From: Trichodelitschia bisporula
Taxonomy: Eukaryota
Assembly (NCBI GenBank): GCA_010356995.1
Contig: ML996687.1
Span: 993,803-1,057,802, forward strand
Direction: 5' to 3'
DNA length: 64,000 nt
Below, in pieces: positions 1 through 62,543 of the stretch (position 1 is the stretch's first letter; every line of letters starts with the position of its first letter). Made by a program: the position numbers and the translations under genes. Below the pieces are notes generated by a model that was not told the origin of the DNA, did not search any database, and saw only the letters and a list, made by a program, of their open reading frames with translations.

Positions 1-1510
1 ATTGTCCCAAAGCTATACTGAAGAAAGGCAGAACTCTGCATCATACTTCCTCGGCGATGCCGCCAACGACTCCCTGCAACGCATCTACGGTGTCTCCTTC
101 CCAGACAAGAAGCTGATGGACGAGCATCTGAAGTACCTAGAAGAGGCTGCGAAGCGAGACCACAGGAAAATCGGCAAGGAGCAAGAGCTCTTCTTCTTCC
201 ACGAGCTCTCTCCGGGATCGTGTTTCTTTTTGCCACATGGAATGATCATCTACAACACTCTTCAGTCCTTCCTGCGGTCGGAGTACTGGAAGCGGGGCTA
301 TCAGGAAGTGAATACACCAAACATGTACAATGCTCAACTCTGGATGAAGTCCGGTCACTGGGAACACTACCAAGATGACATGTTTACCTTCACTGTCGAA
401 AAGCAGCCTTGGGCGTTGAAGCCAATGAACTGCCCTGGACACTGCCTCCTGTTTGCACATCGTGAGCGCAGCTATCGGGAGTTACCCTTGCGGATCGCAG
501 ATTTTGGTGTTCTACACCGCAACGAGGCCTCAGGTGCGCTCACTGGCCTGACACGTGTGCGGAGATTCCAGCAGGATGATACACACATTTTCTGCACTCA
601 AGACCAAATCACCGACGAGATTATTGGTCTCTTTGATTTCCTAGGCACTGTTTATGGCAAGTTCGGCTTTACTTTCAAGCTTAAGCTCTCCACCCGGCCG
701 GAAAAGTACCTCGGAAAGCTGGAAGAGTGGAACCTGGCAGAAGCCAAGCTTGAGGACGCTCTGAATCAATTCAAGGCCCAGAAAGGCGCTGAATGGGAGC
801 TCAATGTCGGCGATGGCGCCTTCTACGGACCTAAGATTGATATCACCATTTGCGACGCTCTTAGGCGGGAGTTTCAATGTGCCACCATTCAACTCGACTT
901 CCAACTTCCTCAGCGCTTTGACCTGGAGTACATGACAGCTGAGAATGCCCCAAAAGATTCTCAACAAGAAGCAAATGCTCCCGCGGAGACCGACAGCAAG
1001 AAGACCGAGCCTTCAGGGCCAAAGCCGGGCTATGCACGCCCGGTCATGATCCATCGCGCCATTTATGGTAGCTTCGAACGCTTCATCGGAATCCTCACGG
1101 AGCATTTCGGTGGCAAGTGGCCGTTCTGGCTGAGCCCACGTCAAGTGCTCGTCGTTCCGGTCATGCCTGCCGTGAATGACTATGTCGAGGAAGTCCGGAA
1201 GATCTTCCGGGATAAGGGCATGCATGTGGACATTGATGTCAGCGGCAACACCCTCCAGAAGAAGATTCGGACAGGTCAATTGGCCCAGTACAACTTCATC
1301 TTCGGTAAGGGTGCCATGGTCCTTTGTATCCGTATGCATGGCTAATGAGATGTAGTTGTGGGCGCCCAGGAGAAGGAGAGCCGCACAGTCAATATCCGAA
1401 ACAGAGATGACCCTGCCACTCAGGCCAAGGGTGAACTGGTTCCTCTTGAAGTGGCCATCGAGAAACTCACGGCACTGCGTGATACCCGGGTGTTGAAGAA
1501 TGCTATCTAG
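1..1510 (+). CDS. THS1: Cytosolic threonyl-tRNA synthetase (5' truncated by window; intron 1305-1355)
   Basis: Motifs [83 protein letters not shown] intron restores [18 protein letters not shown]; stop TAG at 1508-1510. Confidence 0.97.
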
Positions 1511-1979
1511 ACATCGGACTACAATAACCACTTGATGTCGGACACCCCTGACAATTCGGGTTTCTTCTCTAGCTGTGAGGGGCGCAGAGTTCACTGCTGT
1601 GTATGTTAGCCATCTACGGCTTACGCGGGCCCAGTCTCCCGTACTTGGATTCAAGGTAGCACATGATAATCGGTGCGAAACACTACGTCATAGGTGCGAT
1701 CACAGCATTATGTGACCTGAGAAAGCGTTCAATCGAGCGTCTCCCATGCAAGCGATGAGCCAACTTCAATTGTGACATATTTAACCCCTGACTTCAGGAG
1801 TGATACTAAGCACATGTCAGCGAACAATCATTTATTTCATGTTGCTGTAACCCGAAGATACTTTTGCATGGGCTTTAACCTATAATTGTCTATCTAACCG
1901 TGCTTCACCATCTTTATGAGCAGAACGAGAGAAAGATGTGAGCACCCTTCTCAGACCATCGGATCCTGCCCGCACCCCT

Positions 1980-4100
1980 CTAGAGAAATGCCTCGAGGTT
2001 GATCTCCAGTCCACTGACAGGATACCTGAGATGGTTAGTACGGGTGTATGGAGCCAAGGACAAGGGAACGTACGGCAGCTCGTAGTTCTTGAGCACCTCT
2101 GGATGTAGGATACCAAACTGCCCAATAGCATGCTCTTCGCCCTTGATGCGGACATGAATGGAAGCGGCATGGCCGTGGAAATACGTAGGATCTTTAATTG
2201 CGTCAGCAATGCAAAGAGATCCAAGATGAGTCACCAACCATCCAGTTCTTCAATCCAGTACTCGCTCTTACCCTCGGGTGCCTTCGATCCGTCGCCTACA
2301 AAGCTCACGTCCAGCACCAGCATGATGCGGTCCAGAAGCCCGTGCACAACTTGAAATCCGCTTGTCTTTCCATACCAGACGGCGCCCAGGCGACGTTCAT
2401 TGCGCGTCTTGCGCTCACGCTCCTCGGCTTTGAGCCCGACATCAGACACCTCGAAGACGCGCAACGGGACGGGCCGGTGCTTGTTCTCGCGCACCGTCTT
2501 CAGCAACCCCGGCAGTAAGCTGGTACGCACGACCTGGTACTCAAGGCTTTTGGGATTTTGCAGTCGGATGGCGGTTGTGCCGTCGTCCTTCCGGCGAAGC
2601 CACGCAAAGTTCTCGTCGTGCGAGCACAAAATGAGTGGCATCGCTTCCGTCCAGCCTGCCATGGCGGCTTCAACGCGCACCAGATCCGACAGCCGGTTGA
2701 TGGGGAGAGCAGCACCGACCGCGGCAGATTTGGACGGGTAGTAGCGCGGAAGGTTGTTGAAGCCGTAGGCCACTGCCAGGTCTTCCATGATATCGGCCTG
2801 GTGGAGGATATCTGCGCGAGTGATTGGGACGGACACATCAAGTGTGTCGGGATCCGCGGACGAAGACGCAGCGGAGAGGCTCATGCGCTTGAGGAGATCA
2901 CATTGTTCCTCCGGGGTCAAGGAGAGGCCAGTACACTCGTTCAGGTAAGACACAGAGGCTGACATCTTGCGGGCCGACAGGTTAGGTGTCGTCCGCGTCT
3001 CACCGTTGTGGTCAGAGATTATTGATACAGGCTCCACGGTACAAGCGTCGTCAGCGTATAGGCTGAACATGGCTACCATGATCTGATTGACAATCTCGAC
3101 CTTGGTCTTATCTGTGGCAGTGATCTCAATGAACACGTTCCTCGTGTCAAGCGTGATCTTTGAGTGGTTTCCGTTGATGATAGGCGGAAGGGACAGGACC
3201 ACATCGTTGCTATCGTAGATAACAGGATAGAGAGGCTTGTCGCGGATGATGTGAAGATAGCGGCCCAGGTGACGGTCTTTCTCGTAATAGGCCATGAGTT
3301 CCGTGCCCGTCATTTCCGTGGTCTGGTTAAGCGGCACGAATTTGATGTCATCAGGAGAGAGAGCCTTGTAATGAAAAGGTCCTTTGATGGTGTCAAGATC
3401 ATGGGTTCCGATAGAAACCAGCGTCCGCTGCCTGGCGAGATTGGCATGGAGCTTGTCCTGGAGCGCAATGAAGGATTCATAACGAGCTTTGGTGAAAGTG
3501 ATGTTGCGGATGATGGCGCAGGAAACCAGGCTACGCACATCTTTGGTCTGGCAGTTTTAGCACAGGGGAGACAACTCCCAAGGGCTCACTAACAGGTTCA
3601 TGAACGATCAGACTCTCCAACTTGCCACTCGGAGGCTCTATGAGCCGGTAGTTAGGAAAAGGTTTCCTCCCTAGGAAGACGTTGAGATTGAGAGCAATCC
3701 CCTCAAAGCACAGCATGTCATATCTTTCAAGTTAGACTTCAGTGACATCTATGGGGCGACGTGCATACCTGTTGGCCGGGATTTCGATCTTGAGCTGAGG
3801 TGGCTCCTGAACGCCGTTGACAATCGGGCGATCGGAATCGGTCGTCTGCCATGGTCAGAGTGCGCCAATGTGAAGGCGGAAAAATATACATCTTCATCGA
3901 GCTCGATGCCTGGCGGGGATAGGTCAGCCAAGCTACAGCGACCTCGCAGAGATACTTGCCGAATTCGAAGCATAGCTCATCAAATTCCTTTGTCGAATAA
4001 CTTCAAGTTTGTCAGCGGCAGCGCATATTTCTTTCAAAAAGTCGTACTCCCTGCCCAGAGCTTTGAAGAGCTCGGCTTTATCCACCGAAATAGTCGGCAT
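1980..4100 (-). CDS. FRS1: Phenylalanyl-tRNA synthetase beta subunit (7 introns)
   Basis: Spliced N-terminus MPTISVDK..EFDELCFEFGIELDED..KIEIPANRYDMLCFEG; LQDKLHANL, SLPPIING, PITRADILH, VRTSLLPGLLKT; C-terminus EINLEAFL. Confidence 0.96.
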
Positions 4101-4706: not shown

Positions 4707-6347
4707 CTAGAGCGTCGGCTCGAGGGTTGTGCCACTGACGGTCGGTTAGCATCTCTCACAGTACCATAAGCTCCGAAATACATACGCAGTAATGGTAGCC
4801 CAGCCGATGAGCCTCCAATGGCGTTCTATCCGGCGAGACAGAGCGATCTTTTCACCCAACTCCGTGCAAGCTGGTGCAGTCAGGCTTAGACGGGCAATAT
4901 CTGCCTTCACACCCATAACCTTGGCACCGGTGGCCGTGCTGCCAATGTTGACCATCAGAATCTCATTCTTGGATAACTTGGCGACCTTGGCTTGCTTGCC
5001 ATCCGTAGTTTTCACGCCCAATAGCCGCCGCAACAGGAAGTAGTTGACTTCTAGCTCGGTGTAGATGGAAGGGAGGCGACCCTTGAGACCCAGGACGAAG
5101 CCAACCAGGCGATCAGCACGGCACAGAGTAGGATCCACGCGAGTTCCCACACCTATTATGCCATCAGCACTTCCTCAGTATGTTCTTAGAGTGTTACCCA
5201 CCGATGAGGCCGCCAGGGACGGCGAAGTTCAGATCGTTATGCTCAGCGAAGAGCGTCATAACGCGACTAAAGATCGGCTTGCACTTGATCTTCCCCTGGT
5301 CATCCTTGGACACGAGACCGGGACGGATCTCGATTTCATCGCCGATCTTGAGGACACCAGTCAGGATCGAGCCACCAGCAACGCCACCCTTGAGATCTTC
5401 AATCTCTGCACCAGGCTTGTTGACGTCAAAGCTCCGAATGACCATCATGTGCGGTGCGGCAGAGAAGTCGCGGACGGGGACGGGGATCCGGGTCACCAGA
5501 GCTTCATTGACCGCGTCGATGTTGAACTTCAGCTGGGCTGAAATCGGGATGACAGGGCTGCCATCAGCAACAGTACCGCGAATGAATTTGAGAATACTGG
5601 CATAGTGGGCTTCGGCACTATCCTCCTTCATTAGGTCAACCTTGTTTTGCAGAATGATAATATGATTCAGTTTCATGATATCAATAGCGGCCAAGTGCTC
5701 ACTCGTCTGCGGCTGAGGGCATGTTTCATTGCCAGCGATGAGGAGTAAAGCGGCATCCTGTCTAAATTAGAATCTAAAATCGACCGACCAAATAATGTAC
5801 TTACCATGACAGCGGCTCCGGACAACATGGTGCTCATAAGGATGTCGTGCCCAGGGCAGTCGACAAACGAGACGTGGCGAAGGAGGCGGAGGGTGCCCGT
5901 GCAGCCCTCACGCTCGCAGGGCAGAGAAACAGACTGATCGCTCTTGTAGCTGCGATAGCAGGTTGGGCGCGGGCACTCCTTGCTATCGCACTTGTAGATC
6001 TTCGCGTTCGCATATCCCAGCTTGATGGTGATGTTACGCTCGAGCTCATTCTTGAAGCGAACCGTCTGTACACCAGAGATGGCCTTGACCACGGTCGATT
6101 TTCCATGAGCGACATGGCCAATTGTGCCGATATTGATGGTGGCCTGGCGCGCAATGATTTCGGGTGACAGTGGCGTCATCTTGGTAAAGTCGATCTCGCT
6201 GGGGTGCACCTGCTCAGCCAGGTATGGGCGCTCGACCGGCGGAGGCGGAGGCTGGCTCGTCTTCATCGCAGACCGGATAGGGAGCTGCTCAGCCTCCGAC
6301 TCGGAGGAGGAGGAGTCGTCAATCTGTCGCTCGGGATCGGAATCCAT
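4707..6347 (-). CDS. GCD11: Translation initiation factor eIF2 gamma (3 introns)
   Basis: [67 protein letters not shown]; last exon [12 protein letters not shown]. Confidence 0.97.
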
Positions 6348-7299
6348 GATTGCGACTTGAGCGAGGAGCTGCGAAGGGTTTGCGTGGACGGCGTGAGGCG
6401 AAGGTGTGAAGTCGATCTAGTACCTCCGTAGGGGGGGTGCGGGGAAGTTTGGGGGGGATGGTCCTGGCAGAAGGTGGAGTTTCGTGAACTCAGTGAAAGG
6501 TCGTGGTGCTTGGATGAGGGGCAAGTTAGCGGGGGATGGGATGGCGGAGGAAGTGGTGGGTGAGGGATCGAAATTTAGAGTCACAGGCCTTGGGCTGGTC
6601 ATTGCTTGTAAGCGCCACATTTATTCTACCGAGCGCCACATATGGGGAAGGCACCCAGGTGCACGGACCACAACTTGATGCCAACGCCCATGATCTGTAG
6701 CACTGCTCTAGGTAAAGAAGTCAATGCGCAGTGCCTCCGCAAAAACGAGCCAAGTGAGGGCGCTGCGACTTTTGTCAAGTGACACTCACAGTACCACTCT
6801 CAGCCGCTACCCAACCGCTCTACTTGCGTCACTTCCTGTGACTTTGCTGCATACTTCGTACTACGTACTGTACTCCGTATGGTACCCCGTACTCCAACAA
6901 ACAACGGCCGAAAGGGCTTCGCCATCCATATCTTCATCATTACGGGTATCTTCTGACGGCTCACAACCTCGCAAATTGCCGAGATCTTCAAAGCGGAATG
7001 ATTCCTAGTGACCCTTATCGAGTACTCTGTCTGCACCTCGATCTCTACATGGCCGCCCGCAGCCGACAATCGGCCAATCCGTACCCAATCCCGCGTGCTG
7101 TCTTTCCCATTGGAGAAATTTCACCCCAAAGGCTGAGGTGGCTGCAAATTGACTACGTAGATGGTAGAAATCAAGGTTCTGGCATGCGTTTCAGCTGGCC
7201 AAAGTTTTATATCCCATCCCCTACCTCGTTGCTCTTCGACTTACAGTAGGCATCTTTGCGTCAACTTTCCCATCGCCTTTCTCCCATTTAGTCTCACAT

Positions 7300-8338
7300 A
7301 TGACGCGAAAGAGTATATTACCCACCTTCAACAAGCGTCAGGAGGCTGGCCCTCCGGCAGCTCCTACAGACCGACGTCTCGATCGCCTCAGCTTCGTGCC
7401 AAACTGGATTCGGAATGAGATAATTGCCTTCCTCGGCGAGTTCGTCGGCACATTCATGTTTCTCTTCAGCGCATTTGCTGCTGCTCAGGTCGCCAATGCT
7501 TCAGCGCCGACCACTGATAGCCAAACCGACACCCATTCCCTAACGCAGATTCCCAATACTTCGAATCTTCTTTACATCTCCTTGTCCTTCGGCTTCTCGT
7601 TGGCCGTCAGCGTTTGGGCCTTTTTCCGCGTCAGCGGTGGCCTTTTTAATCCTGTTGTCAGTTTGGATGGGGTACTACTGCATGTCCTCACTGACCCGTT
7701 GCTAGGTTGCACTCGGTCTTCTCCTGATCGGCGGCATTGCTCCTCTCCGAGCGGCCAATGTCTTCATCGCCCAGCTCATTTCCAGCATAGTCAGTGCCGC
7801 CATAGTCTCAGGTCTTTTTCCCGGGCCGCTCAACGTGTCGACTACACTCGGGGGCGGTGCTACCATCACTCAAGGCCTTTTCATCGAGATGTTTTTGACA
7901 TTCGGCCTAGTGTTCACAATCTTCATGCTCGCGGCCGAGAAACACAAGTCAACCTTTCTGGCCCCCATCGGCATCGGCCTCTCTCTCTTCGTTGCCGAGC
8001 TTACCGGGGTATACTTTACAGGAGGCGCCCTGAATCCCGCACGCGCCTTCGGGCCTGCCTGCATCACTGGCAACTTTCCCGGCTATCACTGGATCTATTG
8101 GCTGGGCCCGGTCATGGGCTCCTTGTTGGCCGTCGGCTTCTATAAAACCATAAAGTACGCCGAGTACGAGACGGCCAATCCGGGCCAGGATCTGGACGAA
8201 CAGGAGCGAGAGATGTTTGTTCCACCGTCCGACCCCGTTGTCGCTGCAGACGTCCAGAGACCCAATGTAGCAGCTGAGAGGATTGCCTCGGGCTCACCGC
8301 CGAGAATCTCGTCGCTGAGTGAGGAAATTAGGAAGTGA
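7300..8338 (+). CDS. Fungal orthodox aquaporin, MIP family (intron 7657-7705)
   Basis: GEFVGTFMFLF, YISLSFGFSL, SGGLFNPV, LFIEMFLT, AAEKHKSTFLAPIGIG, GGALNPARAFGP, HWIYWLGP. Confidence 0.93.
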
Positions 8339-8617: not shown

Positions 8618-10774
8618 CTACTTGTGAGGAATCCCTTCCTCGGGGACCGGGACGACGTCCACAACTTCAGCCGCAGCCTTGTCCTGCTGTTTGCTAGTGT
8701 CGTCCTTCATGAAAGGGAAGGTCAAAACTTCTTTGATGCTGTAATGATCTATGAAGCAGCGTTAGTTTCCGAATCAAAAATTCTATTGCTCGAGGTAACT
8801 CACCAGTCAAGAACATGGTAATACGGTCAATGCCCATGCCCCATCCACCAGTTGGCGGCAAGCCGTACTCCAAGGCTTGGCAGAAAGTCTCATCAATAAG
8901 TTGCGCCTCATCATCGCCCTGTGCCTTCTGGTTGGCCTGTTCCTCAAAGCGAAGGCGCTGGTCAAAGGGGTCGTTCAACTCCGTGTATGCGTTAACAATC
9001 TCCTTCTTGCATACAAAAGCCTCGAACCGCTCACACAAGCCCTTCTTGCTGCGGTGGTACTTGGCCAAGGGACTCATCATCTGCGGGTGTCCCACGATGA
9101 AGGTCGGATTGGTGCACTTCTCCTCGATAAACTCACCCACAAGGCGATCGAGCATGCGCGCGTTCGTCAGAGGGGGCGGGCAGTCGACGTTCATCTTCTT
9201 GAGCACACGCTTCAGGAACTCTCCCGTCTCGGCTGTGTGGAGCTGGTCACCAGGGGGGAAGGTCTCCCCTACCGCTTCCTCGAGGGCTGGAATCATCTCG
9301 ATGCGCTTCCAGGGCTTCGCCCAGTTCACCTCGTAAACCTCTCCGTGCTGAGTGTGGAACTTTGTTTCGAAGCCACCCGTCACAGCCTGGACCATGCCCG
9401 AGACCATGTCTTCGGTCACCTCAAGGACGTCGTACATGTCCGCGTATGCCCAGTAAAACTCGCATGTCGTGAACTCCGGGTTGTGCGTCAGATCAATGCC
9501 CTCATTGCGGAACTGCCGCCCAATTTCGTACACGCGATTGAGTCCTCCCACGACCAACATCTTCAGGTATAGCTCCGGTGCTATCCGCATGAAAAGATCC
9601 ATGCCAAGTTCGTTGTGGTAGGTTTTGAACGGCTTGGCTGTGGCGCCGCCGGCAATCTTATTCATCATGGGAGTCTGCACCTCCAGGAAGTCCCGGGAGT
9701 CGAGGAACTGTCGAATGTACTTGACGATCTTGGATCGAGTAATGAAAGTGTTCCGAGTCGAATCGTTCATGATCAAATCAAGGAATCGCTGCCTGTGACG
9801 CTGCTCTTGGTCCTTGAAGCCGTAGTGGACCGTTGGCAGCTGACGTAGACACGGGGTCAAGAGCACCACTTCGGTTGCGAAGATGCTCAGCTCTCCAACG
9901 TCCCTCGACTTCGGCTGAGTACGTCCTGGATAACCGACCACGCCAATGATATCTCCTCGCTGAAGGTTCTCATACTTCTCGATCGGAGCGGTAGAGTCGG
10001 TACCTTCGAGCGTCTGGCACATGACCTGCAGCATGACGCCCTCTTCATTGGGTCAGCGATGACCTCAAGACCAGCGAGAAGTCGCAATTACCTGTTTTGA
10101 CATCGTAGAAGCGGAGATTCTTGCCATATGACCGCTTGGTTATGATCCGCGCACCCACACGAACCTCAATGTCCTGGGCCGATTCACCGTTCCCAAGATA
10201 GTCGAACCGCTGATGGAATTCGTGCGGGTTCGTAATGACGTTGAATTTATGGGGATATCTGGATTACTAGGTCAATTCTGCTTGTTTTCAGTCGGATATC
10301 CATACGGGTCAGGTAGGTGGGTCTCCCGCAACTTGTTGATTTCGCGACACCGCATCTCAAAATATTGCTGGCAAGGTCAGCATGCCGTTCGCCACCTGCT
10401 GCAGACGGCAAAGGACCCGAGACAAGCAAGCACAACAACAGCAAAGTCAAGCTCACATTTGGGTTCAGGTCCGCCATATCAGTCTCCGCTTTCTTCTTCT
10501 CCGGCTTTGGGGGCGCCGCAGCAGCCTTCTCAGCCTTCTTCGCGGCGGCTTGCCGAGCCTTCTGGCGCTTCTTGACTACGGGCGTTCAGTTTGTGCTTCT
10601 CCCAAGAAGCCTCATGAGAGCAGACTCACGCTCGCTCTTCGACACCATTTCCCCCGTCTCAGCGTCTAGTTGCATATTTGGCTGGGATTGCTCCCCAGAG
10701 GCTTCCGGGTTAAGGCTCGTAGAAGCGACCTTCTCGGCCACAGCCGCTACAGCTTTCTTCACAGCATCGGCCAT
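8618..10774 (-). CDS. KRS1: Cytosolic lysyl-tRNA synthetase, class II (about 5 introns)
   Basis: [73 protein letters not shown]-terminus EEGIPHK. Confidence 0.97.
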
Positions 10775-17483: not shown

Positions 17484-17514
17484 TCCAACGCTCCTGCACG
17501 TCCGAAGTGGTCAA

Positions 17515-40400: not shown

Positions 40401-40794
40401 GTCGTCGATGTGGTGTTGCAGAGAAGTCGAAGAGGAGGGGTAATGGCGGGGGTGGAGATTTTGGAGAGTCACCGATGATTGCCAAGCGTTAGGGTCCGTG
40501 TTCTGTGAAGGAGTACCGTAAATGATCCTAGTCGGTGGCGTGGGTGGCTGGTGAATCGGCGAAACCCCGGAGGTTCTAAAAACGGTGGGGCTTTCTGCAC
40601 CGTGCGCATCGCTGCACGCTAAGAAAATGCCAAGAGATATGATGGAATTCATGCGGGTTTCGGTGCGCAAACTCGTGACTGAACGGGCAACGACTTGATC
40701 TTTAGCCACATACTTTACAACAACACTTACTTAAACCCCGCCCTAGCTCATCAGCTCCCGGTTTTCTTTTGTACATCTATCGAGCTCGTTTAAC

Positions 40795-50561: not shown

Positions 50562-53500
50562 TTAACCCCAGGTTCCGCCTCCCCCCCGTCCCTGGCGACG
50601 TTGTGCGCTCAGCCGCCAGTCATCTTCGCCTGCAAAGCGATTATGCAGGGGTTGGATGCGCTCAGCCTTCTTACGCTTGCTCAAGCGATCGTTCGGGGCG
50701 ACACGGAAGAAGGTTGGCGCCGCCTCTACGAGCCACCTGGGCTCAATGGCAGTGACATTGTGCATATACTCCTTGGTCGTTTCCACGAGTGAGTGGTAGA
50801 TAACGTGCTCGGCCGGCTTGCCGAAGAGAGCTGATGAAGGATGCATGTACACTGGGGTACCTTCAACAAGCGTCGTGAAGTTGCCCTCTGGGCTCTTTCG
50901 TGCTGCGTTGCGGAAGAAACCCGAGCATAGTGCCTGGCGCACCTTGGTCGTGTCCCGTCCACAAGATGCAACGCGCAGCCGATGCCGTTCAAAAATTCCT
51001 AGCAGTTGCTGCCGCACATCCTGCACCCGCTTCATGGCCCGCGGCTGGATGAAGTTCTCGTAGCACCACGGGGTGCTGAATTTGCTCATCTTCCAAGCAT
51101 TGTACACATTCAGCAATGTCAAATGATCGCCATGCTGATCGTGGAATTTTGCCTTTTTCTGATCGGCTTGCTGCTGCTTTTCCTTTGGCCGATGAAAGAC
51201 GGTCTGAGTTGCTGAGATCATGGCCACTATGGTGAGCATCTCGTCCGCACAGTCAAACTGAACAGATATGATAAGCGCTTTGGCCAATGAAGGATCCATG
51301 GGGAAATCGGCCATTTGCCGACCTAAACGGGTAAGGAGACCCTCTTCATCCAGTGCTGACAGTGCATAGAGCTCTTCCAAAGCGGTGAGGGTCGTATTGG
51401 TTGGAGGAGGGTCCATAAAGTCGAAATGCAGCAAATCGTTGATTCCCATGGCCTTGAGCATCAAGATTGTGTGCGACAGATTCTGACGCTGAATCTCCGG
51501 AATGGTGGTCGGAAGCATTTCGGATTGGAAGGCCGTTTCAGTGTACAGACGGAAACACTTGCCAGGTCCAGTTCTCCCAGCCCTGCCCGCTCTCTGCTTC
51601 GCCTGTGCCTGCGATATTGGCGTCACCTGTAAGCGGTCCATACCGAGTTTTGAATCGTATGCGGTCTGCTTAACAAAGCCAGGATCTACGACGTAATAGA
51701 TACCATCGATAGTAATGGAAGTCTCGGCAATGTTGGTTGCAATAACGACCTTTCGACTTCCCGGAGGCGCTGGGTCGAAGATGCGGCTGGCTACTTCGCT
51801 TGGAAGGGCGCCATAGATAGGCAAAATCATGAGCTCTGGGACGGCTGGCCCAAGCGCCTTCATCCGTTCATGTAGAATTTCGCAGCTCGTGTCGATCTCC
51901 TCCTTACCCGTCAAGAACAGCAAAATGTCACCAGGAGGTTCGGTAAGATGGATTTGCATGACGGTGGTAAGGGCTGAATCGAGGTAGTCCGACTCCGGCT
52001 CCCGGGAGTACATGATCTCGACCGGGTACGTTCGGCCCGGAATGGAAAAAATTGGACATTGGTTGAAGTACTCAGAGAACTTATCAGCATCAAGCGTAGC
52101 CGACGTAACGATAAGCTTCATATCGGGTCGCCTTTTCAGCGTCTTCTTGAGCAAGCCGAACAAAACGTCCGTAGCAATCGTTCTCTCGTGAGCTTCGTCC
52201 AACATGATGACCGAATACTTGTTCAGCATTGGATCGAGGAGAATCTCGCGCTGAAGGATGCCGTCCGTCATGTACTTGATCTTGGTGTCCGGAGTGGTGC
52301 AGTCCTCGAAGCGGATGGTATAGCCGACCTCATGGCCTAGTTTGCAGCCAACTTCGTCTGCCACACGCTGAGCAACTGACATGGCCGCAACACGACGAGG
52401 CTGCGTGCAGCCAATCATGCCCTCATTGGCATACCCATCTTCAGCGAGGTATTGCGTAAGCTGTGTCGTCTTTCCTGAGCCAGTATCACCAACAACGATA
52501 AGAAGCTGATTTGCCCTGACGGCTTCGAGGAGTTGCTTGCGGAACTTGAATACGGGAAGGCTTTCACGCTGGTCTTTAATGCTCATGTTTGTTCGCTTGC
52601 CAGTTGATGGCTCCTTGCCTTGCATGATGCGCTTCCACTCTGGGAGAGGCTCGTTGCTTTGCGCGGCTTGGGCATTCCGCAAACCCGACGCAAACTGACG
52701 TTGCTCGGGTGCTACGAGGGGATCTTGCCATTGGGCATTAAGATCGACCTGAGCGGCGCGCTGAGCTGCCTTGTCCTGAGCTTCTTGTTGCCGTAGGTCT
52801 CTGCGCTCTTTGGCAAGCGATTCGCCTGCGATCGCAGCGCGGTTGAGAGATCCATCCGGGGCCTTGACCACGCGGATCGGAGACAGTTCGAGCGACTGTT
52901 TGGTCTGACCTGCAAGGAAAGGCGGCTCCTCCTCGCGAACCTCGATGTCGACATCCTCCTCTTCTTCGATTTCACCATGTCCATTGAGGGCGGCGGTAAA
53001 GTCATCGTCGATGTCGGGGTGATCCTCTCGGGAGATTGCTCCAGATGCGATCAGCTGTTTGATCTCCCACCTCTCGGGGGACGTAAGCCGCTTTCTCTGG
53101 CGTCCAGAATTCTTGAAGCCGTCTTCGATGACCGGAACATCGGAAATGGGGTCCCCAAACCGTCCGTTGGATGCCCCACCCAGGCCTTCTCCATTTGCGC
53201 CAGTGCCAATTCTGAGCTGTGGAGCAAGATCTCTACCGGTGACCTGGTCTACTTCCTTCATGGAGAGGCTGATGCGGGTACCCTCGATCTTGATAACCTT
53301 GACTTTTACTTCCTGGTTTCGAGACACCAAATCCGAAGGATGATTCACTCTCGCCCCCTCTTGCATGGCCGTGACATGAACCAGTCCGTCAATTTTGTCT
53401 CGTACGCCTTGGAGATTGACAAAAACGCCAAAATCTTTCACCCCTGTGACCCTGCCACTATAGACCTTGAAAAGGACGGGGGCATCGTCGATCTCCGGCG

Positions 53501-54224
53501 TAGGTGGTCGACGAAACTCGTCCTCGCTATCGCTCCGCCTTCGCCGTGTCTTCCGGCTCTTTCTTCCCCCGTCCTCGTCTCTTTCTCTTCTCACTGTCTT
53601 CGTTCTCCCAAAGTCGTCCTCGAAAATGTAATCATCGTTCCTCGAACCCTTCCCGTTCCGGCGCGGACTGCGTTCCCGATTGCGTGATTCGCTTCTGTAT
53701 CGCTTATGCGGACGTCCTCGAGACTCATCATACGGGCTACGACTCCGCTTTCGAGCTGTGGTGTCCACCTTCGTCATGGGAGGAGGTGCCGACTTCCCGG
53801 CCAAACTCTCCAGCATGGCAAAGGTGTCATCCAGTACGTCCATCTTGGGATCATCAAGGGGCACTGGGTCTGCATCCGGAATAGCCAGTCCACGAAAAAC
53901 CTTAGCCTTGCGTGCAGTCTCGTCATCTCTTTCCTCCCTGACGCGCGCCATATCCTCGTGTACAGCTTTCTCGCTCTTCCCTTTGTCCTTGTAAGCCGGA
54001 TGCATGGTCCATACCAAGCGGTCGATACTCTGGACCAAGCTGCGCGGAAACTCGGCTCCCATGGCATCCAGGGCGGCTTGGAACGCGTCGAGACTGTCGC
54101 ATTTCGCGTGCTGGGCAATGATGAATTCCGCGAGGGTTTTGTCCGTAATGCCGAGATGGTTCTGGAGTTCCGAGGTTACTTTGGTCACCAGAGAGAGGAG
54201 CTCTAGAGATGCAAGATCGTCCAT
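50562..54224 (-). CDS. PRP22: DEAH-box helicase Prp22/DHX8, intronless
   Basis: MDDLASLELLSLV start, S1 domain, SPERWEIKQL, GDTGSGKTTQ, DEAH, SAT, QRAGRAGR. Confidence 0.97.
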   Translation of the reverse strand: MDDLASLELLSLVTKVTSELQNHLGITDKTLAEFIIAQHAKCDSLDAFQAALDAMGAEFPRSLVQSIDRLVWTMHPAYKDKGKSEKAVHEDMARVREERDDETARKAKVFRGLAIPDADPVPLDDPKMDVLDDTFAMLESLAGKSAPPPMTKVDTTARKRSRSPYDESRGRPHKRYRSESRNRERSPRRNGKGSRNDDYIFEDDFGRTKTVRRERDEDGGRKSRKTRRRRSDSEDEFRRPPTPEIDDAPVLFKVYSGRVTGVKDFGVFVNLQGVRDKIDGLVHVTAMQEGARVNHPSDLVSRNQEVKVKVIKIEGTRISLSMKEVDQVTGRDLAPQLRIGTGANGEGLGGASNGRFGDPISDVPVIEDGFKNSGRQRKRLTSPERWEIKQLIASGAISREDHPDIDDDFTAALNGHGEIEEEEDVDIEVREEEPPFLAGQTKQSLELSPIRVVKAPDGSLNRAAIAGESLAKERRDLRQQEAQDKAAQRAAQVDLNAQWQDPLVAPEQRQFASGLRNAQAAQSNEPLPEWKRIMQGKEPSTGKRTNMSIKDQRESLPVFKFRKQLLEAVRANQLLIVVGDTGSGKTTQLTQYLAEDGYANEGMIGCTQPRRVAAMSVAQRVADEVGCKLGHEVGYTIRFEDCTTPDTKIKYMTDGILQREILLDPMLNKYSVIMLDEAHERTIATDVLFGLLKKTLKRRPDMKLIVTSATLDADKFSEYFNQCPIFSIPGRTYPVEIMYSREPESDYLDSALTTVMQIHLTEPPGDILLFLTGKEEIDTSCEILHERMKALGPAVPELMILPIYGALPSEVASRIFDPAPPGSRKVVIATNIAETSITIDGIYYVVDPGFVKQTAYDSKLGMDRLQVTPISQAQAKQRAGRAGRTGPGKCFRLYTETAFQSEMLPTTIPEIQRQNLSHTILMLKAMGINDLLHFDFMDPPPTNTTLTALEELYALSALDEEGLLTRLGRQMADFPMDPSLAKALIISVQFDCADEMLTIVAMISATQTVFHRPKEKQQQADQKKAKFHDQHGDHLTLLNVYNAWKMSKFSTPWCYENFIQPRAMKRVQDVRQQLLGIFERHRLRVASCGRDTTKVRQALCSGFFRNAARKSPEGNFTTLVEGTPVYMHPSSALFGKPAEHVIYHSLVETTKEYMHNVTAIEPRWLVEAAPTFFRVAPNDRLSKRKKAERIQPLHNRFAGEDDWRLSAQRRQGRGGGGTWG

Positions 54225-54754
54225 GGTGGAGTATGCGCCCGTGGGGCTCGCAAATCGGATTGCAAGCGCGAAGGTCGATGGCAAAAGTCCCCTGTTGCCC
54301 GAAGCTCGCGAAGCACGGCGAAAGGTCCTCGGTACTCGGTGAAACTTTGCTCCAGTTGACCTCGTCAAGCAGGCGTCTCGACAAAAGAGCTTTCTCGGGT
54401 CAAATTGAAGCTTCGGTGCTGATGTGCACAAATGGAGATACAGTATTCTTTGGCTTATAGGGGAAACAAAGTGGTGTACACAAAGGTGAAATGCATTTGA
54501 AATCGCCTGTTTAAGATTGAGAGTGTTCCACTGTTCTGTGCTGTACTCGTACAGTAACCGGGCAGCAGATGCTCTAATCCGTACTGATGACTGAACAGAT
54601 ACCTTTCCAACTTTACTACGCCAATCTAGCGGTGAACTGGGCATCAGTTGGGTAACAACTTTCCATCAATTGAAGAAATTTTGAGAGGCGCAAAAAGTGG
54701 AACAAAAGGCGGTTTGATGAAGGAGCAGAACTGCAAAATAGCAGTTGCGGCCGA

Positions 54755-55117: not shown

Positions 55118-57580
55118 ATGTCCGGGCCGAACCCAATATCACGGCCTCGGCCGCTTCGTGAGCGAATTGGTGGTCTCAGGAGCTCTCCCAGCCTTAGAGG
55201 TTCACCCGCTCCTGCTCCTCCAGTGAGTCTTATCACTGCTGTCGCCGCACGCCGCAAGGCAGCTCGTACATGCCCGAACTGTTCGACTCCAGACATCGGC
55301 GAACTTGAAGGCCAGGTAGTGTGTTTGAACTGTGGTGCTATCATCAGTGACTCTGTCATCGTCAACGAGATCGCCTTCGATGAAGCACCGTCTGGAGCTG
55401 CCCATGTCCAAGGAACAACTGTTCATGATGGCCAGCGCGGTGCCAGGTCGGTAGCTGTCGGCTTTCGGAGAGGGGGACGGTCGAGTGAGGAAACGGCAGA
55501 GAACGCTCTTCGCATCGGTAAGTGTTAGCCCGATGTCATCCCTGATTTACGCGCTCACGAGTACCAGGCAAGGAGGAAATCACTCGTCTGGCTAATGCTC
55601 TCCACATCAACGGAATGGTTGAGAAGGCTTACATGCTCTACCAAATTGCCCGCATCCATCAGTTCCAGCGGCCGATTAAAGAGAATGCCGCCATCTGTCT
55701 CTATGTTTCCTGCAGACAAACCAAGGGTAATACGACTATGCTCATTGACTTTGCCGAGCAAATTCGGGTCAGTTATCCCTATGAATCCGTTTAAATTTTG
55801 ACGCTAACATTGCTAGCAAAACGTATATGACTTGGGTGCCACATACAAGAGTTTCATCAAGGCCGTATCTCTCGAAGATGAGCTCGATCCTATCCCTATC
55901 ATCGAAATTGAGCCCCTACTCCTGAAGTACGCGAAACGATTGGAGTTCGGCGATGCAACTCGGCAAGTGGCTGCCGACGCCGCTTCCATTCTCGCCCGTA
56001 TGGACCGCGACTGGATGGTTACCGGACGTCAGCCCTTCGCCCTTTGCGGCGCATGCTTGATTCTGGCGGCCCGCATGAACAACTTCCGCCGTTCAATCCG
56101 CGAAGTCGTTTTCATTGTCCGTGCCGGCGATGTCACCATCTTGAAGCGTCTCAAAGAATTCCAACGTACCACTGCAGGGCGCTTGACCGTCCAACAGTTT
56201 CGCGACGTTGGCTTGCGTCTCAAAGAGCAAGCTGATCCGCCTTGCTTTACGGAGAAGCGTTACAAGAATATGCGGAAGCGCAAGCGGGGTGTTGCCATGT
56301 TTGACGTGGGCACGTCTACTCGCGATGCCACCGTCGACCTCACTGGATCTTCGACTTCCGGATCTCCGGCTCCTAGGCGCGATGCGGACGGGTTCGTAAT
56401 ACCAGATGTGCCAATTGATCCATCTCTTGTCTCCCCGGCAAATAATGCTGAGGCAGAAAACAGAGCACCTACTGCGCAAATGGCAACTCGCGTGTCTACC
56501 AAAGGTTCTAGAACTTCCAAGGGTACCACTCCAGACGGGAGCCCGGAAGTCGCAACTCCAGAGGAACAAATGGACGAGGTGCTTGAGGAAATCGAAGGAC
56601 CATCGACTAAGAAGCGGCGTACGCGCAAGAAGGAGAAGCCGGATCCCCTAGTTATCCAAGCGGAAGACCTTCTAGATGATAATGAACTCGGCGAGCTCGA
56701 AGCGCAAATTAGCCAGATCGTTGACCGACACATTACTGAAGACGCCTACATCCTTTCGGAAGCGCGAGCCAAGGCTCTTGCCGACGCGGAAAAGGCTAAA
56801 GTGGCGGTCGACTCCCGAAGAAGGAAGGTTCGCCACACTGAGGAAATCGACCCAGAAGAGTTCGACGACGATCCTGAGGTGAACAATTGCTTACTCAATG
56901 AGCGCGAAGCCGAAGTCAAGGAGCGCATCTGGGTGACTTCGAACTGGGAATGGCTGCGCGAGCAGCAAGCCAAGGCACTTGCTGCGCAACTGGACGAGGC
57001 GAAGGGCAAGAAGAAGAAGACGCCGGGCACAAGCCGCAGACGTCTTAAGGATGACAATGACCAGGAACCCGCGGCGACGCCTGCTGAGGCTAGTCGTCGT
57101 ATGTTGGAAAAGCGCAGCTACCGCGCGGCTTTCAGCAAACATCTAAACTATGACAAGCTTATGAAGATCTATGGGCGGGACGAGGGCGACGACGATGACA
57201 ACGACGACAACGACGACAATGCTAGTCGGGCCACGAGCCCTGCACAGACGGTGGATGGGAGCGTTGAGCCCGAATCTGCTCCGGAAAGATTCCAGATCAC
57301 TCGGACAAAAAAGCCGCAGCAGCAGCTTCCAACTCCCGCGACGACCCAAGAAGCATCTCGGGTAGTGGACCGCGACGAGGTGGTAGAGGAGGAAGATGCT
57401 GACATAGGAGCACCAAACAACACCGGAGGAGAAGTCGAGATTCTGGAAGAGCTCAGCGACCTTGACGACGAGGCTGAGCCGGGAGTAGACGATACCATGT
57501 TGGATGATGATGATATGGAAGATGCATTTGAATCCGAGGATGAGGTGTATGATGATGAGGATGGTGAGGAGTTCGGCTAG
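55118..57580 (+). CDS. BRF1: TFIIIB subunit Brf1 (2 introns)
   Basis: Zn ribbon CPNC..CLNCG, cyclin folds, RMDRDWMVTGRQP..GACLILAARMNNFRR, DDDPEVNNCLL..KERIW, FSKHLNY. Confidence 0.95.
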
Positions 57581-57820: not shown

Positions 57821-59653
57821 TCACTTTTCAATCTTTAGTCCCTTCACGCCCTGCGACACTTCACCAAAAGCCGGCAACGAGGCCGCCCCGGCTCCCTCGG
57901 CAACCGCCTTCTTCGCTTCAGTCGGCGCTTTTACGCCCGCCTTGGCCTTTGCCTTGGTGCTGGTGCTGTCCTTCGGCAGCTCACGCACCCAGGGGAGGAA
58001 CTCGGGTTGGCCGGGGATGTACTTCCGCAGCACTTCGGGCACAATCATACCGTCCGGCGTCTGGTAGTTCTCCATGATGCAGCACAGGCACCGCTCTGTG
58101 GCCGTCAACGTAGAGTTGAGCGCGTGCACATACTCCTTACGCGCGGAAGTCTGCTTCTTGATACCGAAGCGGATTTCGAGCTCGCGCGTCTGGTAGTCTG
58201 TGCAATTCGAGCACGATACAAGTTCCTTGTACTCGCCCTGGAAGGGGAACCATGCTTCAAGATCGTACCTATTCCAGTTTAGCGATGTGAAACTATCGAC
58301 TCAGGGGGGTTCTCACTTCTTGGCTGCCGCGTTATTCAAGGCTCCCGAAACGATTGCCACTACGCGATATGGCAGCCCAAGGGACTTGTAGAACTCCTCG
58401 CTGACATTGATCATGTCCTCGAAAGCTTCCCATGACTTCTCGGGGTGCGTAAGGAGGAATTGCTCAATCTAAAGCTGGTCAGCTAAGGTCCTGCATCACG
58501 CCACAGCACTTACCTTTTCGAACTGATGTATGCGGAAGATGCCCCACGCGTCCTTCCCGTGAGACCCTGCCTCTTTCCGAAAGCAGGTGCTATAGCCGGC
58601 ATACTTGACGGGGAGATCAGCCACTTGTAGCCACTCGTCCGAGTGCTTCAAAAGGTCAGCAAACGTTCATAGCACGGATAAGGTGAACCTCACTAAGGCT
58701 GAGAGGGGCTGTTCACTCGTGGCAATCAAGTACTTGTCCGACGTCGGATCGTTGTCGTCCTCCGTGACTTTGTAAAGCTCTTCGTCAAACTGCTCCAGTT
58801 GCGCTGTCTTCGCCATCTGGTCTCGTAACATCATGTAAGGTGGGGCGTTGGGCTGGTATCCTTTATTGTAAAGGAACTCGAGGCCGTAGTTGACAAGCGC
58901 CACTCCGTTGGTCAGTACGTTCGAGATAGCGGTTAGGAAAGCTTACAATTGAGAAAGAGTCCCATTCCCGTCAAGCAATAGCCACGATGTCCCACAACTT
59001 TCACACCACGTTCCGAGTCGTAACCGCCGAGACGATGAAGAACCTCATGATGTGACAAGCAGTCCTTCTTCTCCACTGTCACGCCCTCAGGAACCCATTT
59101 GCGGATAACCGCGTTGTCGTCTTCGGTCAAGCTGCACGGCCTGTTTCAGCACACATCTTATGGATGGGGTCAATTTTCACTAGTTACCTGAATGGGACAG
59201 AGTCATGGACGTAGTTTCCGACGGTTTTCGCCTTTGAGTGAAGAAGCTTGAGCTTCTCATGCGCGACGTCCTCCTGCGCCTTCTTTTGATTCGTAAGCTC
59301 CTCCTTCTCTTTCAGCAAGTCGTCTGCATCCTGCTTAGCCTAAGGAAGTCGTAGAGTCAGTGGATAGCGGCAAGTGAGACCTCGACAGGCGGACCTTTTT
59401 CTTCTGGCCAATTTGCTTCTGGATTTCGTTGATCTTGCTACCGATTTGTGTGGCGGCGTATTGCGCTGAATGTCAGGATTAGCCTTTTCTTATACCTCGG
59501 GGCTACAGGTGCAAACAAACTTCTCCTATGGTCCTCGAACATCTCAATGATCTGGTCTACAATCTCGACAGGAGCCCCGCGTCGGCGCTGCGACTCCCGG
59601 ATCTTCTCCGGGTTGCCACCACGCTCGACGATGAAGTCCTGGATTTCAATCAT
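57821..59653 (-). CDS. SES1: Cytosolic seryl-tRNA synthetase (about 7 introns)
   Basis: [83 protein letters not shown]. Confidence 0.97.
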
Positions 59654-60284: not shown

Positions 60285-60296
60285 AGCTTAATTACG

Positions 60297-60545: not shown

Positions 60546-60824
60546 ATATCCCAATTAAACCCCAATTCGGTCACCCCATTCGCACGGGTTCTCGGATAAT
60601 TTGGAATCAACCAGCGAGGCAATGAGCATTACGCGATGCGAATACAAATCTAAGAAAAAGAGGATCGAGCCGGCAACAGGTGAAGAGCTTTTGGAACTCG
60701 TAAGCCTCTATATCCACACTAGTACGCCATAGCCATCATGGAACCATGGCCACACTAATTTAAACGAACTCGTCCCGCTTCGCTTGGTATCGCTCAATTC
60801 TCCCCTCACTGCCTAAATATGTAC

Positions 60825-62543
60825 CTAGTTCTTATCGAACCTGACGGCAGGCTGCTCCTCCACAAACTTCAGATCCACCTTATGGCCGAGCAACTCACGA
60901 ATATTGCTAACCTTGTACCGGATCATCGTGGGCCGTTCCAGACTCAGACCGAAACCATACACACGCATGTTGGGAGGCAGGCCCATGGGCTCTAGCATCT
61001 CTGGCCGGAACATCCCACTGTTGCCAATTTCAACCCATTTCCCAAGGCCAATGTGGTAACCGAAGATCTCCATGCTCGGTTCGGTGTAGGGATTGTATGC
61101 TGGCTTGAAGCGGAGGTCTTCGATGCCCAGCTTGCTAAAGAAGTCTTCAAGGAACTTCATCAGCCCGCCCAGCGTCAGTCCGAAATCGGCGATGACGCCC
61201 TCGACTTGGTGGAATTCGGCCAAGTGGGTGGCGTCAACACTCTCGTTGCGGAAGACACGATCGATCGAGAAGTAGCGCGCCGGACGCGGGTCTTCGGCCA
61301 AGCGGTGTAATACCCATGTGGATATAGCAGTTGTGTGCGTGCGTAGCACTAGCCTCAGACACTCGTCCTCACTCCAGTTGTACCGATAACCAATTGAGCC
61401 AAAGGCACCCTTCTCGTGGACTGCACGAACCCCATCCCAGTACTCTTGGTAGTTGCGCGGCTTGGTGGGGCGGGGTGTGGGTTCAGCGAACAGCTTCCGG
61501 GAACTCTCTTCCATGGCGGCCATCGCCTCTTCAGCATGTGGATCTGGGCGCGGGCGGTCCGCTCGAGGAGGATCTGAAATGAAGAAGGTGTCCTGCATAT
61601 CACGGGCTGGATGTTGCTGGGGAACGAAGAGAGCGTCGAAGTTCCAGAAACCAGAGTCAACGAAGCTACGACCCTGCGTTAGCGGTTCTCAGCTCTGCAC
61701 GAAGTTTGGAGGACGCACTGGTTCGTGGGCATCTCGACGAAGCCCTGGTTGAAGAAGATATTTCGGAACTCTGCGCGAACCTTGTTCAGTGGATGCAGAG
61801 CTCCAGGATTTTGCCCTCCACCCAGTGCCTTGAAGTTGTATGGCTTGAAGTTAGCCGTCTGCCAGGCACCGCTCGCAAGCATGTCGGCCGTGATGTCGGT
61901 AACCTCCACAGGGATCTCCCGCGCGTACTTCGGGCCCTTGCGCGCGACATAGCTGATGACTTTGCCGACTGTGACAAGCTTGCGCTTTTTAAGATCCGCG
62001 AGCGTCTTAGCATCCGGCGTGGCCTTCGACTCTTGAATCTGTGCGAGCAGCTCCCGAGCAGTATCCTGAACACTTTCCACGACCGATACTAAAAATTCAC
62101 CCTCCTTTTTGATCCATTTATTCCGCATGGCTTTGCCCTGGCCGACACCGGCTGATTCGCCAACTTCATTCTACGCGCAGTCAGTTATCTGCCGCTATGC
62201 GAGCAAAAGAACTTCATACCCCCAACTCCTTCATCGGCAGGCGCCCTTTGCTCTTCACAGCCTCCCAGACTTTGAATTCGTGGCTCCCGGACGCAGCAAT
62301 GAGGGCTCCCTCCTTAGTCAAGAGGACGCGCTCAGATTCTTTGGTATCGTACTCCACCATGGCACGCGACGCCAGCCGATCCAGAGCTGCCTTAACATCT
62401 TGTTGTTGGACCCCGGGAAGCGCTTCATCAGTTTTGATTTCCGGAGTGCTGGAGAGGAGATCGAGGACCTTTTGCGTTGTCGAGGCCGTATCTGCGACGG
62501 GCAGTGGGGGAGGAACCGGGGCAGGCCCGCGCGTGCCAGGCAT
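60825..62543 (-). CDS. FRS2: Phenylalanyl-tRNA synthetase alpha subunit (2 introns)
   Basis: [78 protein letters not shown]. Confidence 0.97.

Follow-up and report, generated by a model that had tools for sequence, protein, structure and literature searches.

A run of about 26 genes fills, without a break, a 64-kb stretch of the genome of the dung fungus Trichodelitschia bisporula, a Dothideomycete (64,000 nucleotides of assembly GCA_010356995.1, contig ML996687.1, positions 993,803 to 1,057,802 of the forward strand; the whole stretch is called here the window). About 22 of the 26 genes code for core housekeeping machinery, and six of these code for aminoacyl-tRNA synthetases. The run is tentatively read, with somewhat less than even confidence, as a neighbourhood, specific to this lineage, of growth-coupled and essential housekeeping genes, which would have been brought together by rearrangement and then kept by selection.

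Fourteen of the 26 genes serve tRNA, translation or RNA polymerase III (Pol III). They include the six synthetase genes and those for eIF2-alpha, eIF2-gamma, eIF2B-delta, eRF3, RPC1, RPC4, BRF1 and RPB5. The other core genes code for three spliceosomal proteins (PRP6, PRP22, CLF1), two proteasomal proteins (RPN12, PRE2), TFIIA, and two secretory proteins (beta'-COP and a SEC9-like candidate SNARE). Functional classes are interleaved along the run and form no sub-blocks; strands are mixed, and the layout is not polycistronic. Spacers are short, ranging from 149 to 1034 bp and totalling 15.5 kb, as measured between approximate gene bounds. We take 21 or 22 of the 26 genes to be orthologues of essential yeast genes. 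A functional clustering of tRNA charging had been proposed in a sequence-only reading of the same DNA. The clustering stands, and goes far beyond chance, but its restriction to tRNA charging was too narrow: about 16 further core housekeeping genes stand in between those of the synthetases, so the unit is a wider essential-gene neighbourhood.

The probability of at least six synthetase genes falling in a 26-gene run is 3e-12 to 1.6e-9, on the assumption of 8,000–12,000 genes and 21–38 synthetase genes in the genome. The probability that at least 21 of 26 genes have an essential-type orthologue is at most 5e-11, even against a background in which 20% of all genes belong to this type.

Genes were identified by searching against Pfam the 359 stop-to-stop open reading frames (ORFs) of at least 70 amino acids found in the window. 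The genes for ThrRS, PheRS-beta, LysRS, AsnRS, SerRS and PheRS-alpha are all present where the sequence-only reading had placed them, and all belong, as it had said, to class II. ThrRS and SerRS carry tRNA-synt_2b, LysRS and AsnRS tRNA-synt_2, PheRS-alpha tRNA-synt_2d, and PheRS-beta the domains tRNA_synthFbeta, B5 and B3_4. In the main exons of all six genes the class II core domains exceed the Pfam cut-offs, and the subclasses IIa, IIb and IIc are assigned as in textbooks. No class I synthetase family was found among the 359 ORFs at E <= 1e-5, and no mitochondrial synthetase in the window, which bears out a further claim of that reading. Identity was settled at the level of paralogues by matches in PDB for RPC1, eRF3, eIF2B-delta, PRP22, CLF1, RPN12, PRE2, ThrRS, SerRS and LCMT1.

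Judged from sequence, four of the synthetases are cytosolic: ThrRS and SerRS by their PDB matches, AsnRS by the presence of the AsnRS_N domain, and LysRS by the names of its orthologues. The best match of ThrRS is the human cytoplasmic enzyme (E 4.5e-162, vs 2.7e-98 for yeast mitochondrial ThrRS), that of SerRS the cytoplasmic enzyme of Candida (E 2.9e-55, vs about 1e-15 for mitochondrial SerRS). Several LysRS orthologues among the listed database matches carry the name cytoplasmic. PheRS-alpha and PheRS-beta are predicted to be cytosolic from their domain make-up, as a two-subunit PheRS with B3_4, B5 and DBD domains is presumably the cytosolic form. For the restriction to class II the nominal p, calculated post hoc, is 0.0085 (counting 6 of 21 genes) or 0.016 (counting 5 of 20 enzymes). 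The restriction is probably incidental, a by-product; nothing that was found gives it a mechanism.

The assembly was compared, over positions 1–20000 of the window, with Logan contigs from two DNA runs and from two runs of another sample (X3 and X4). The DNA runs probably derive from the source sample of the assembly, and hence are not independent of it; X3 and X4 are RNA by presumption, and the evidence used is the lack of introns in their contigs. A DNA contig of 18,981 bp spans positions 1–12156, and another of 48,164 bp spans positions 12201–20000 and extends for about 40 kb past position 20000; neither has a differing letter. The sole break between them (12157–12200) falls on a CTG repeat of the TFIIA gene, in which nine CTG units occupy positions 12165–12192. 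In the divergent spacer between the TFIIA and PRP6 genes a G-run (about 13605–13612) measures 6 G in the window and is longer by 8 G in one DNA contig (X1), while X2 and X3 contigs end there; the length of this homopolymer is thus uncertain in the assembly. GT..AG introns of 45–89 nt are missing from X3 and X4 contigs in the ThrRS, PheRS-beta, eIF2-gamma, aquaporin, LysRS and AsnRS genes, which are therefore transcribed and spliced. Spliced contigs of the second sample match the window at 99% or more in 33 of the 36 placed contigs. Single transcript contigs span the convergent pairs ThrRS/PheRS-beta (1303–2071) and aquaporin/LysRS (7706–8804), so the 3' ends of the two genes of each pair abut or overlap.

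All six synthetase genes bear introns, and splicing was seen in contigs for the four lying within the compared interval (ThrRS, PheRS-beta, LysRS, AsnRS). The domain-bearing stretch of the ThrRS gene covers positions 2–1342 of the plus strand; an intron at 1304–1354 is missing in X3 and X4 contigs, and the stop codon lies at 1510. The PheRS-beta gene has four introns and an apparent micro-exon of 17 nt between two introns (3845–3957), represented by 17 letters in the X3 and X4 contigs. The long exon of the LysRS gene is 100% identical to the T. bisporula lysyl-tRNA synthetase KAF2405251 at NCBI. An ORF of 233 codons on the plus strand (10317–11015) overlies the 5' exons of LysRS and was rejected as a gene. 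Two introns of the AsnRS gene (17800–17859 and 19260–19308) were located by contigs, and its exon is 100% identical to KAF2405254. The SerRS gene is split into many small exons, over which tRNA-synt_2b (profile positions 25–67, 66–114 and 114–179) and Seryl_tRNA_N are collinear and complete.

Second canonical copies elsewhere in the genome would, according to the sequence-only reading, have turned the cluster into a duplicated segment. LysRS, AsnRS and RPC1 have no second protein of the species among the 120 best database matches of each, and each makes up a one-member protein cluster. The three proteins are encoded on one scaffold of 2,035,263 bp, and their accessions (KAF2405251, KAF2405254 and KAF2405268, respectively) run in the same order as the genes annotated here. 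Accession spacing implies 13 genes between AsnRS and RPC1, of which 12 are named here. Identities to the proteins of 13–16 other fungi are ordinary, the nearest being those of Tothia, Venturia, Microthyrium and Verruconis. RPC1 is just 53–63% identical to its relatives, and the other species are equally far from one another; the possibility that it is a divergent copy was rejected, this being the normal level for RPC1 among these fungi. On these sequence comparisons the six synthetase genes appear to be ordinary, vertically inherited cytosolic fungal genes, and LysRS and AsnRS, judged by their 120 best matches, are probably single-copy. Three other fungal loci seem to have the LysRS intron near residue 88/89 as well (tblastn reads through short introns, which makes this sign a weak one); sharing of the intron fits movement of the gene as genomic DNA.

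The region is normal nuclear DNA; the fungus is free-living, and contig totals put its genome at about 30 Mb. G+C content is flat across the window (52–56%), and reading frames are interrupted as in a eukaryote with short introns. The window contains no tRNA gene and no other RNA gene or Rfam family. Repeat families of 24 nt or more are missing from it, low-complexity runs excepted, and its four tandem arrays are all short. No transposase family was found among the Pfam matches of the ORFs. An origin as mobile-element cargo (Starship-like or carried by a transposon), for which terminal or flanking repeats and a transposase or captain gene would speak, found no support: no transposon or repeat borders were seen within the window, beyond which the ends of the run lie. 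An origin from a nucleomorph, a microsporidian or a giant virus was rejected, as the proteins are ordinary Dothideomycete orthologues encoded by genes with introns. The same holds for a biosynthetic cluster in which an extra synthetase copy would confer resistance: the ORFs include no PKS, NRPS, terpene or tailoring-enzyme families, and no extra LysRS or AsnRS copies are found among the 120 best matches.

The run is not a conserved syntenic block of Dothideomycetes or Pezizomycotina. LysRS, AsnRS and RPC1, used as markers, reside on three different contigs in seven of the eight other Dothideomycetes in which all three were found (Tothia, Delitschia, Patellaria, Saccharata, Lineolata, Myriangium and Eremomyces). 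The markers are thousands of accession numbers apart in Tothia, Patellaria and Myriangium. LysRS and AsnRS share a contig of 3.5 Mb in Lindgomyces, 266 accession numbers apart, and a multi-megabase contig in Zopfia, 318 accession numbers apart. In the Aspergillus fumigatus gene ids given in the text and gene table of PMC4551469, 18 genes matched by name are found, by their gene ids, on chromosomes 1 to 6. Orthology rests there on annotation names, and rows for Prp22, Rpb5, eIF2-gamma and beta'-COP did not turn up in the table under the names tried. The nearest pair in that table is AsnRS-Prp1, 42 gene ids apart (PMC4551469), and several genes of the run are listed together on chromosomes 2 and 3 (PMC4551469).

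A metagenome scan with the LysRS alignment retained 80 loci. Only one of them (L002) has any neighbour in common with the window, an aquaporin (MIP) gene found in another position and orientation. The five longest fungus-like loci have ordinary neighbours, and no run of core machinery genes. LysRS is accompanied there by a transketolase-family gene, COX15, a dynamin-family gene, a 2-oxoglutarate (2OG) oxygenase gene and a GMPPB-like nucleotidyl transferase gene, as by genes for a copper ATPase, an alternative oxidase, Hsp70 and an aspartyl protease. Machinery-related Pfam matches in the five loci are an Hsp70 chaperone (L058) and NTP_transferase (L002, L003, L007), and nothing else. The NTP_transferase genes of the latter three loci have a sub-cutoff, eIF2B-epsilon-like match to LbH_EIF2B, and are read as GMPPB. 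LysRS adjoins this GMPPB-like gene or lies near it in L002, L003 and L007. A collinear stretch of about 20 kb is common to L003 and L007, with the order transketolase-family gene, COX15, dynamin-family gene, LysRS, 2OG oxygenase gene and GMPPB-like gene. The arrangement in L002, L003 and L007 looks like an older LysRS neighbourhood, lost in the window.

The hexamer GATGAG, which is the core of the yeast PAC box, occurs 27 times in the 12.5 kb of promoter-type spacers, vs 7.3 +/- 2.7 times in shuffled sequences, and none of 1000 shuffles reaches 27. It is present in 12 of the 18 promoter-type spacers. Near-consensus PAC-like sites are found upstream of the eIF2-alpha gene (23256) and between the eIF2B-delta and RPC4 genes (40746). 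This distribution suggests that the run may be under shared regulation. An inverted repeat (23294–23390), with arms of about 27–30 nt that are 85% complementary and 34 nt apart, lies upstream of the eIF2-alpha gene and downstream of PRE2. A TGAGTCA site (23337–23343) is located in its loop. The repeat could be a regulatory palindrome or the relic of a small element. The pairs LCMT1/RPB5 and eIF2B-delta/RPC4 are divergent, with spacers of about 149 bp (32001–32149) and about 424 bp, respectively, both between approximate bounds. The two spacers are candidate bidirectional promoters.

All the genes of the run are listed in Table 1. Two introns of the eIF2-gamma gene (5150–5198 and 5757–5803) were located by contigs. 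The gene assigned to the SEC9/SNAP-25 type has no Pfam family at E <= 0.01; its ESM Atlas matches, to SEC9 clusters (0.88) and to S9/SNAP-25 t-SNARE clusters (0.93–0.95), provide a lead only. eRF3 was told from Hbs1 by its PDB match (E 4.8e-96, vs 1e-23 to 5e-40 for Hbs1). A CAG run in its N-terminal extension (36541–36564) is complementary to the CTG run of the TFIIA gene, and recalls the Q-rich region of yeast Sup35. RPC1 matches yeast RPC1 in PDB with 1424 bits, vs 760 for Rpb1 and 493 for RPA190, and its exon is 100% identical to KAF2405268. PRP22 matches DHX8 with 1435 bits and yeast PRP22 with 1080, other DEAH helicases reaching at most 802 bits. CLF1 matches Cwf4, CRNKL1 and CLF1 with E values from 5e-138 to 7e-71.

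Table 1. Genes of the run, in the order in which they lie in the window (positions are those of the window).
Gene	Position	Strand	Evidence and remarks
ThrRS, cytosolic, class IIa, 3' part (cut by window start)	1..1510	+	Pfam tRNA-synt_2b, HGTP_anticodon
PheRS-beta, class IIc, ends approximate	1883..4100	-	Pfam B3_4, B5, tRNA_synthFbeta (stretch ~1983-3556)
eIF2 gamma, 5' end approximate	4749..6500	-	Pfam eIF2_C, GTP_EFTU, GTP_EFTU_D2 on three collinear ORFs
Aquaporin (MIP family), not housekeeping machinery	7168..8335	+	Pfam MIP; intron 7657-7705
LysRS, cytosolic, class IIb	8618..10774	-	Pfam tRNA-synt_2, E 7e-84 (8697-10052); five introns
TFIIA large subunit (TOA1), 5' end approximate	11673..13200	-	Pfam TFIIA, E 1.2e-47
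Splicing factor PRP1/PRP6	14199..17033	+	Pfam PRP1_N, HAT/TPR repeats; X3 contig spans 14151-17048
AsnRS, cytosolic, class IIb	17581..19435	+	Pfam AsnRS_N, tRNA_anti-codon (OB fold), tRNA-synt_2 (17860-19260)
RPN12, 26S proteasome lid, start approximate	20247..21604	+	Pfam CSN8_PSD8_EIF3K; PDB RPN12/PSMD8, E 3.8e-21
eIF2 alpha	22000..22904	-	Pfam EIF_2_alpha, S1
PRE2, 20S proteasome beta5	23652..24492	-	Pfam Proteasome, three collinear ORFs; PDB yeast PRE2/beta5, E ~6e-50
Candidate SEC9/SNAP-25-type t-SNARE gene	25073..26497	-	ESM Atlas clusters
COPI beta' subunit (SEC27), 5' end approximate	26916..29209	-	Pfam B-prop_COPA_B_2nd, TPR_COPA_B, WD40
Leucine carboxyl methyltransferase (LCMT1/PPM1 type)	30619..32080	-	Pfam LCM; PDB LCMT1, E 2.8e-31, vs LCMT2, 4.3e-17
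RPB5, shared by RNA polymerases I, II, III	32069..32846	+	Pfam RNA_pol_Rpb5_C, E 6e-36, RNA_pol_Rpb5_N
3-hydroxyacyl-CoA dehydrogenase, metabolic	33112..34407	-	Pfam 3HCDH_N, 3HCDH
eRF3 (SUP35), long N-terminal extension, start uncertain	35327..38477	+	Pfam GTP_EFTU, D2, GTP-eEF1A_C
eIF2B delta (GCD2)	38869..40730	-	Pfam IF-2B; PDB eIF2B delta, E 5e-76, vs alpha/beta subunits, ~1e-15
RPC4, RNA polymerase III subunit	41125..42498	+	Pfam RNA_pol_Rpc4, E 2.6e-32
S-adenosylmethionine synthetase	43341..44530	+	Pfam S-AdoMet_synt_N, _M, _C
RPC1, RNA polymerase III largest subunit	45429..49988	-	Pfam Rpb1 domains 1-5
PRP22/DHX8, spliceosomal DEAH helicase	50565..54665	-	Pfam S1, DEAD, Helicase_C, HA2, OB_NTP_bind
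BRF1, TFIIIB subunit, start approximate	55250..57577	+	Pfam BRF1, TFIIB, Zn_Ribbon_TF
SerRS, cytosolic, class IIa, many small exons, 5' end approximate	57824..59650	-	Pfam tRNA-synt_2b pieces, Seryl_tRNA_N
PheRS-alpha, class IIc	60828..62570 (end ~)	-	Pfam tRNA-synt_2d, E 3.7e-73, PheRS_DBD2, PheRS_DBD3
CLF1/crooked neck splicing factor, 3' part, runs off window end	63034..64000	-	Pfam HAT repeats

The neighbourhood of essential genes may have arisen in two steps. Many small rearrangements, of the kind typical of Dothideomycetes, would have brought the genes together in this lineage; gene order in this class is reshuffled by many inversions, as described in the gene-order passages of Ohm et al. 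2012 (PMC3516569). Selection would then have kept the genes together, for instance in a shared, constitutively open, growth-coupled expression domain. Alternatively, or in addition, breakpoints and insertions between tightly packed essential genes might be poorly tolerated. A bolder version of the same idea, which is possible yet rather doubtful, is that the lineage has actively built a supergene of indispensable gene-expression machinery out of single-copy essential genes from at least six ancestral chromosomes. The supergene would be one repeat-free chromatin domain extending past the window, with the synthesis, charging and delivery of tRNA at its centre. Among eukaryotes it would correspond to the translation superoperon region of bacteria, and selection would maintain it because regulation is shared or because the genes are shielded from rearrangement, from recombination or from damage by genome defence.

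Several points weigh against a lineage-specific neighbourhood kept by selection. Four genes are off theme (those for aquaporin, LCMT1, 3-hydroxyacyl-CoA dehydrogenase and S-adenosylmethionine synthetase), and essentiality is carried over to this fungus from the yeast orthologues. The clustering of essential genes in yeast is a weak statistical tendency, and a run as dense as this in one lineage calls for stronger forces than any yet described. The selective benefit and the shared regulation are proposals. GATGAG is common throughout the window (66 occurrences) and can encode Asp-Glu; gene bounds being approximate, some of the spacers scored for it may hold coding sequence. The heptamer GATGAGC is weakly enriched (20 occurrences vs 13.4 expected, 5 of 100 shuffles reaching 20), and the Gcn4/CpcA-type site TGASTCA is not enriched in the window (7 vs 10.6 expected). 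The comparison includes one genome of the order Phaeotrichales. Phyllosticta is a second lineage in which LysRS and RPC1 are loosely linked: the two are 29–38 accession numbers apart in four species of the genus (P0025/P0292 and cluster members), and 136–137 apart in P. citriasiana. The A. fumigatus genes for AsnRS, Prp1 and eRF3 span no more than 125 gene ids of chromosome 2 in the table of PMC4551469. Rearrangement in Dothideomycetes is mostly intrachromosomal according to the same passages of Ohm et al. 2012 (PMC3516569), yet the genes sit on six A. fumigatus chromosomes.

Other explanations may be weighed on the same data. Were the run a dedicated tRNA and translation cluster, genes that make tRNA (RPC1, RPC4, BRF1), charge it (the six synthetases) and either bring it to the ribosome or take its place there (eIF2 alpha and gamma, eIF2B delta, eRF3) would be kept together for coordinated, growth-rate-linked expression, the rest being passengers. 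The 14 tRNA, translation and Pol III genes speak for it, being far above the share of such genes among essential genes (a share estimated from yeast numbers), as do the excess of GATGAG in promoter-type spacers and the PAC-like sites at 23256 and 40746. These genes are nonetheless interleaved with spliceosome, TFIIA, proteasome, COPI and SNARE-like genes and form no sub-block, and the window is devoid of tRNA genes. The counts of GATGAGC and TGASTCA give the motifs weak support, and class I synthetases, expected in the same regulon, are absent from the window. We hold such a cluster to be unlikely, and the same may be said of a neutral ratchet. In a ratchet of this kind inversions would be frequent, and compact essential genes that happen to become neighbours would rarely be separated again, breakpoints in their spacers being harmful; the arrangement would bring no benefit. 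Short spacers, the lack of repeats and the many inversions reported for the class (in the passages of Ohm et al. 2012, PMC3516569, cited above) are what a ratchet would leave, and the aquaporin gene is still near LysRS, in a position and orientation unlike those in L002, as local inversions would give. Comparable runs would however be expected in other Dothideomycetes, and five other LysRS loci have ordinary neighbours; interchromosomal transfers would be required, and it would be left unexplained why translation and Pol III genes exceed other essential genes by an extra margin.

Tight linkage could also serve the joint inheritance of matched alleles, if the run were a supergene of co-adapted partners whose products interact. 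Sets belonging to the same complex do occur in it (PheRS alpha and beta; eIF2 alpha and gamma with eIF2B delta; RPC1, RPC4, BRF1 and RPB5; PRP6, PRP22 and CLF1; RPN12 and PRE2). Still, eIF2 beta and the other Pol III and proteasome subunits are absent from the window, nothing points to diverged haplotypes, suppressed recombination or a mating-type locus, and theory predicts weak forces. This explanation is quite improbable. That the segment is misassembled or duplicated, and the working genes reside elsewhere, is largely refuted and very improbable. Some room is left to it by the DNA runs, which probably come from the assembly's own sample, as by the contig break at 12157–12200 and the G-run at about 13610, the length of which differs in one contig. 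Against it stand the two long de novo contigs, matching letter for letter outside the break, the spliced transcripts of the second sample, the one-member clusters of LysRS, AsnRS and RPC1 with no second protein among their best matches, and identities to relatives that are those of ordinary orthologues. Random gene order has a practically negligible probability: some selection effect is at work, the finding having come out of a very large scan, but the probabilities calculated for synthetase and essential-type genes are still far below 1 when multiplied by the approximately 250,000 windows scanned.

Known systems resemble the neighbourhood of essential genes in part. Essential genes of Saccharomyces cerevisiae reportedly form clusters, which Pal and Hurst in 2003 and Batada and Hurst in 2007 are said to have tied to low recombination or low expression noise. 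As in the window, unrelated essential genes are adjacent beyond chance, and the causes proposed are the same (a shared chromatin or expression environment, intolerance of disruption). The yeast clusters differ in being short runs reflecting a weak genome-wide tendency, whereas about 22 of 26 consecutive genes are involved here, in one lineage, and translation and Pol III genes are in additional excess. Adjacent pairs of genes of the ribosome biogenesis (RiBi/RRB) regulon, carrying PAC and RRPE motifs, have reportedly been described in yeasts by Wade et al. in 2006 and by Arnone and McAlear in 2011–2012. Synthetases, initiation factors and Pol I and Pol III subunits are typical members of this regulon, and the spacers of the window share with it the excess of GATGAG. 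The regulon pairs are however mostly immediate neighbours, whereas the run counts 26 genes and includes splicing, proteasome, COPI and TFIIA genes foreign to the regulon; motif support is weak here.

The window belongs to a class of fungi marked by mesosynteny, in which frequent inversions are a plausible route to new neighbours. Just two blocks of at least five genes are common to most of 18 Dothideomycete genomes in the account of conserved blocks given by Ohm et al. 2012 (PMC3516569), and neither is a translation block by its description there. Unlike these blocks, the present run is not conserved in relatives. Biosynthetic clusters with a spare, resistant synthetase likewise place a synthetase gene in an unexpected context; here six different synthetases are found without biosynthetic enzymes, and the genes tested are ordinary orthologues of which no other copy was seen. 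Giant viruses, nucleomorphs and bacterial ribosomal-protein superoperons also hold many gene-expression genes side by side. The run differs from all of them in being nuclear, with spliceosomal introns, mixed strands, no polycistrons, and vertically inherited fungal orthologues. No prior description of a fungal synthetase or housekeeping supercluster was found in the literature, a search whose scope stopped short of subscription journals and comparative-genomics supplements.

Fungal gene order outside secondary-metabolite clusters is usually treated as near random over long times. The finding is an extreme new variant of a known gene-order bias, seen in one genome so far. A run of about 26 genes, about 22 of which belong to the core machinery, would offer nature's own experiment in unusually clean form if one lineage assembled it from genes that are scattered in relatives. 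Such a run could inform how fast clustering arises, and whether co-location alters the expression of tRNA and translation genes, as which forces hold essential genes together, be it a chromatin domain, expression noise, recombination, tolerance of rearrangement or genome defence.

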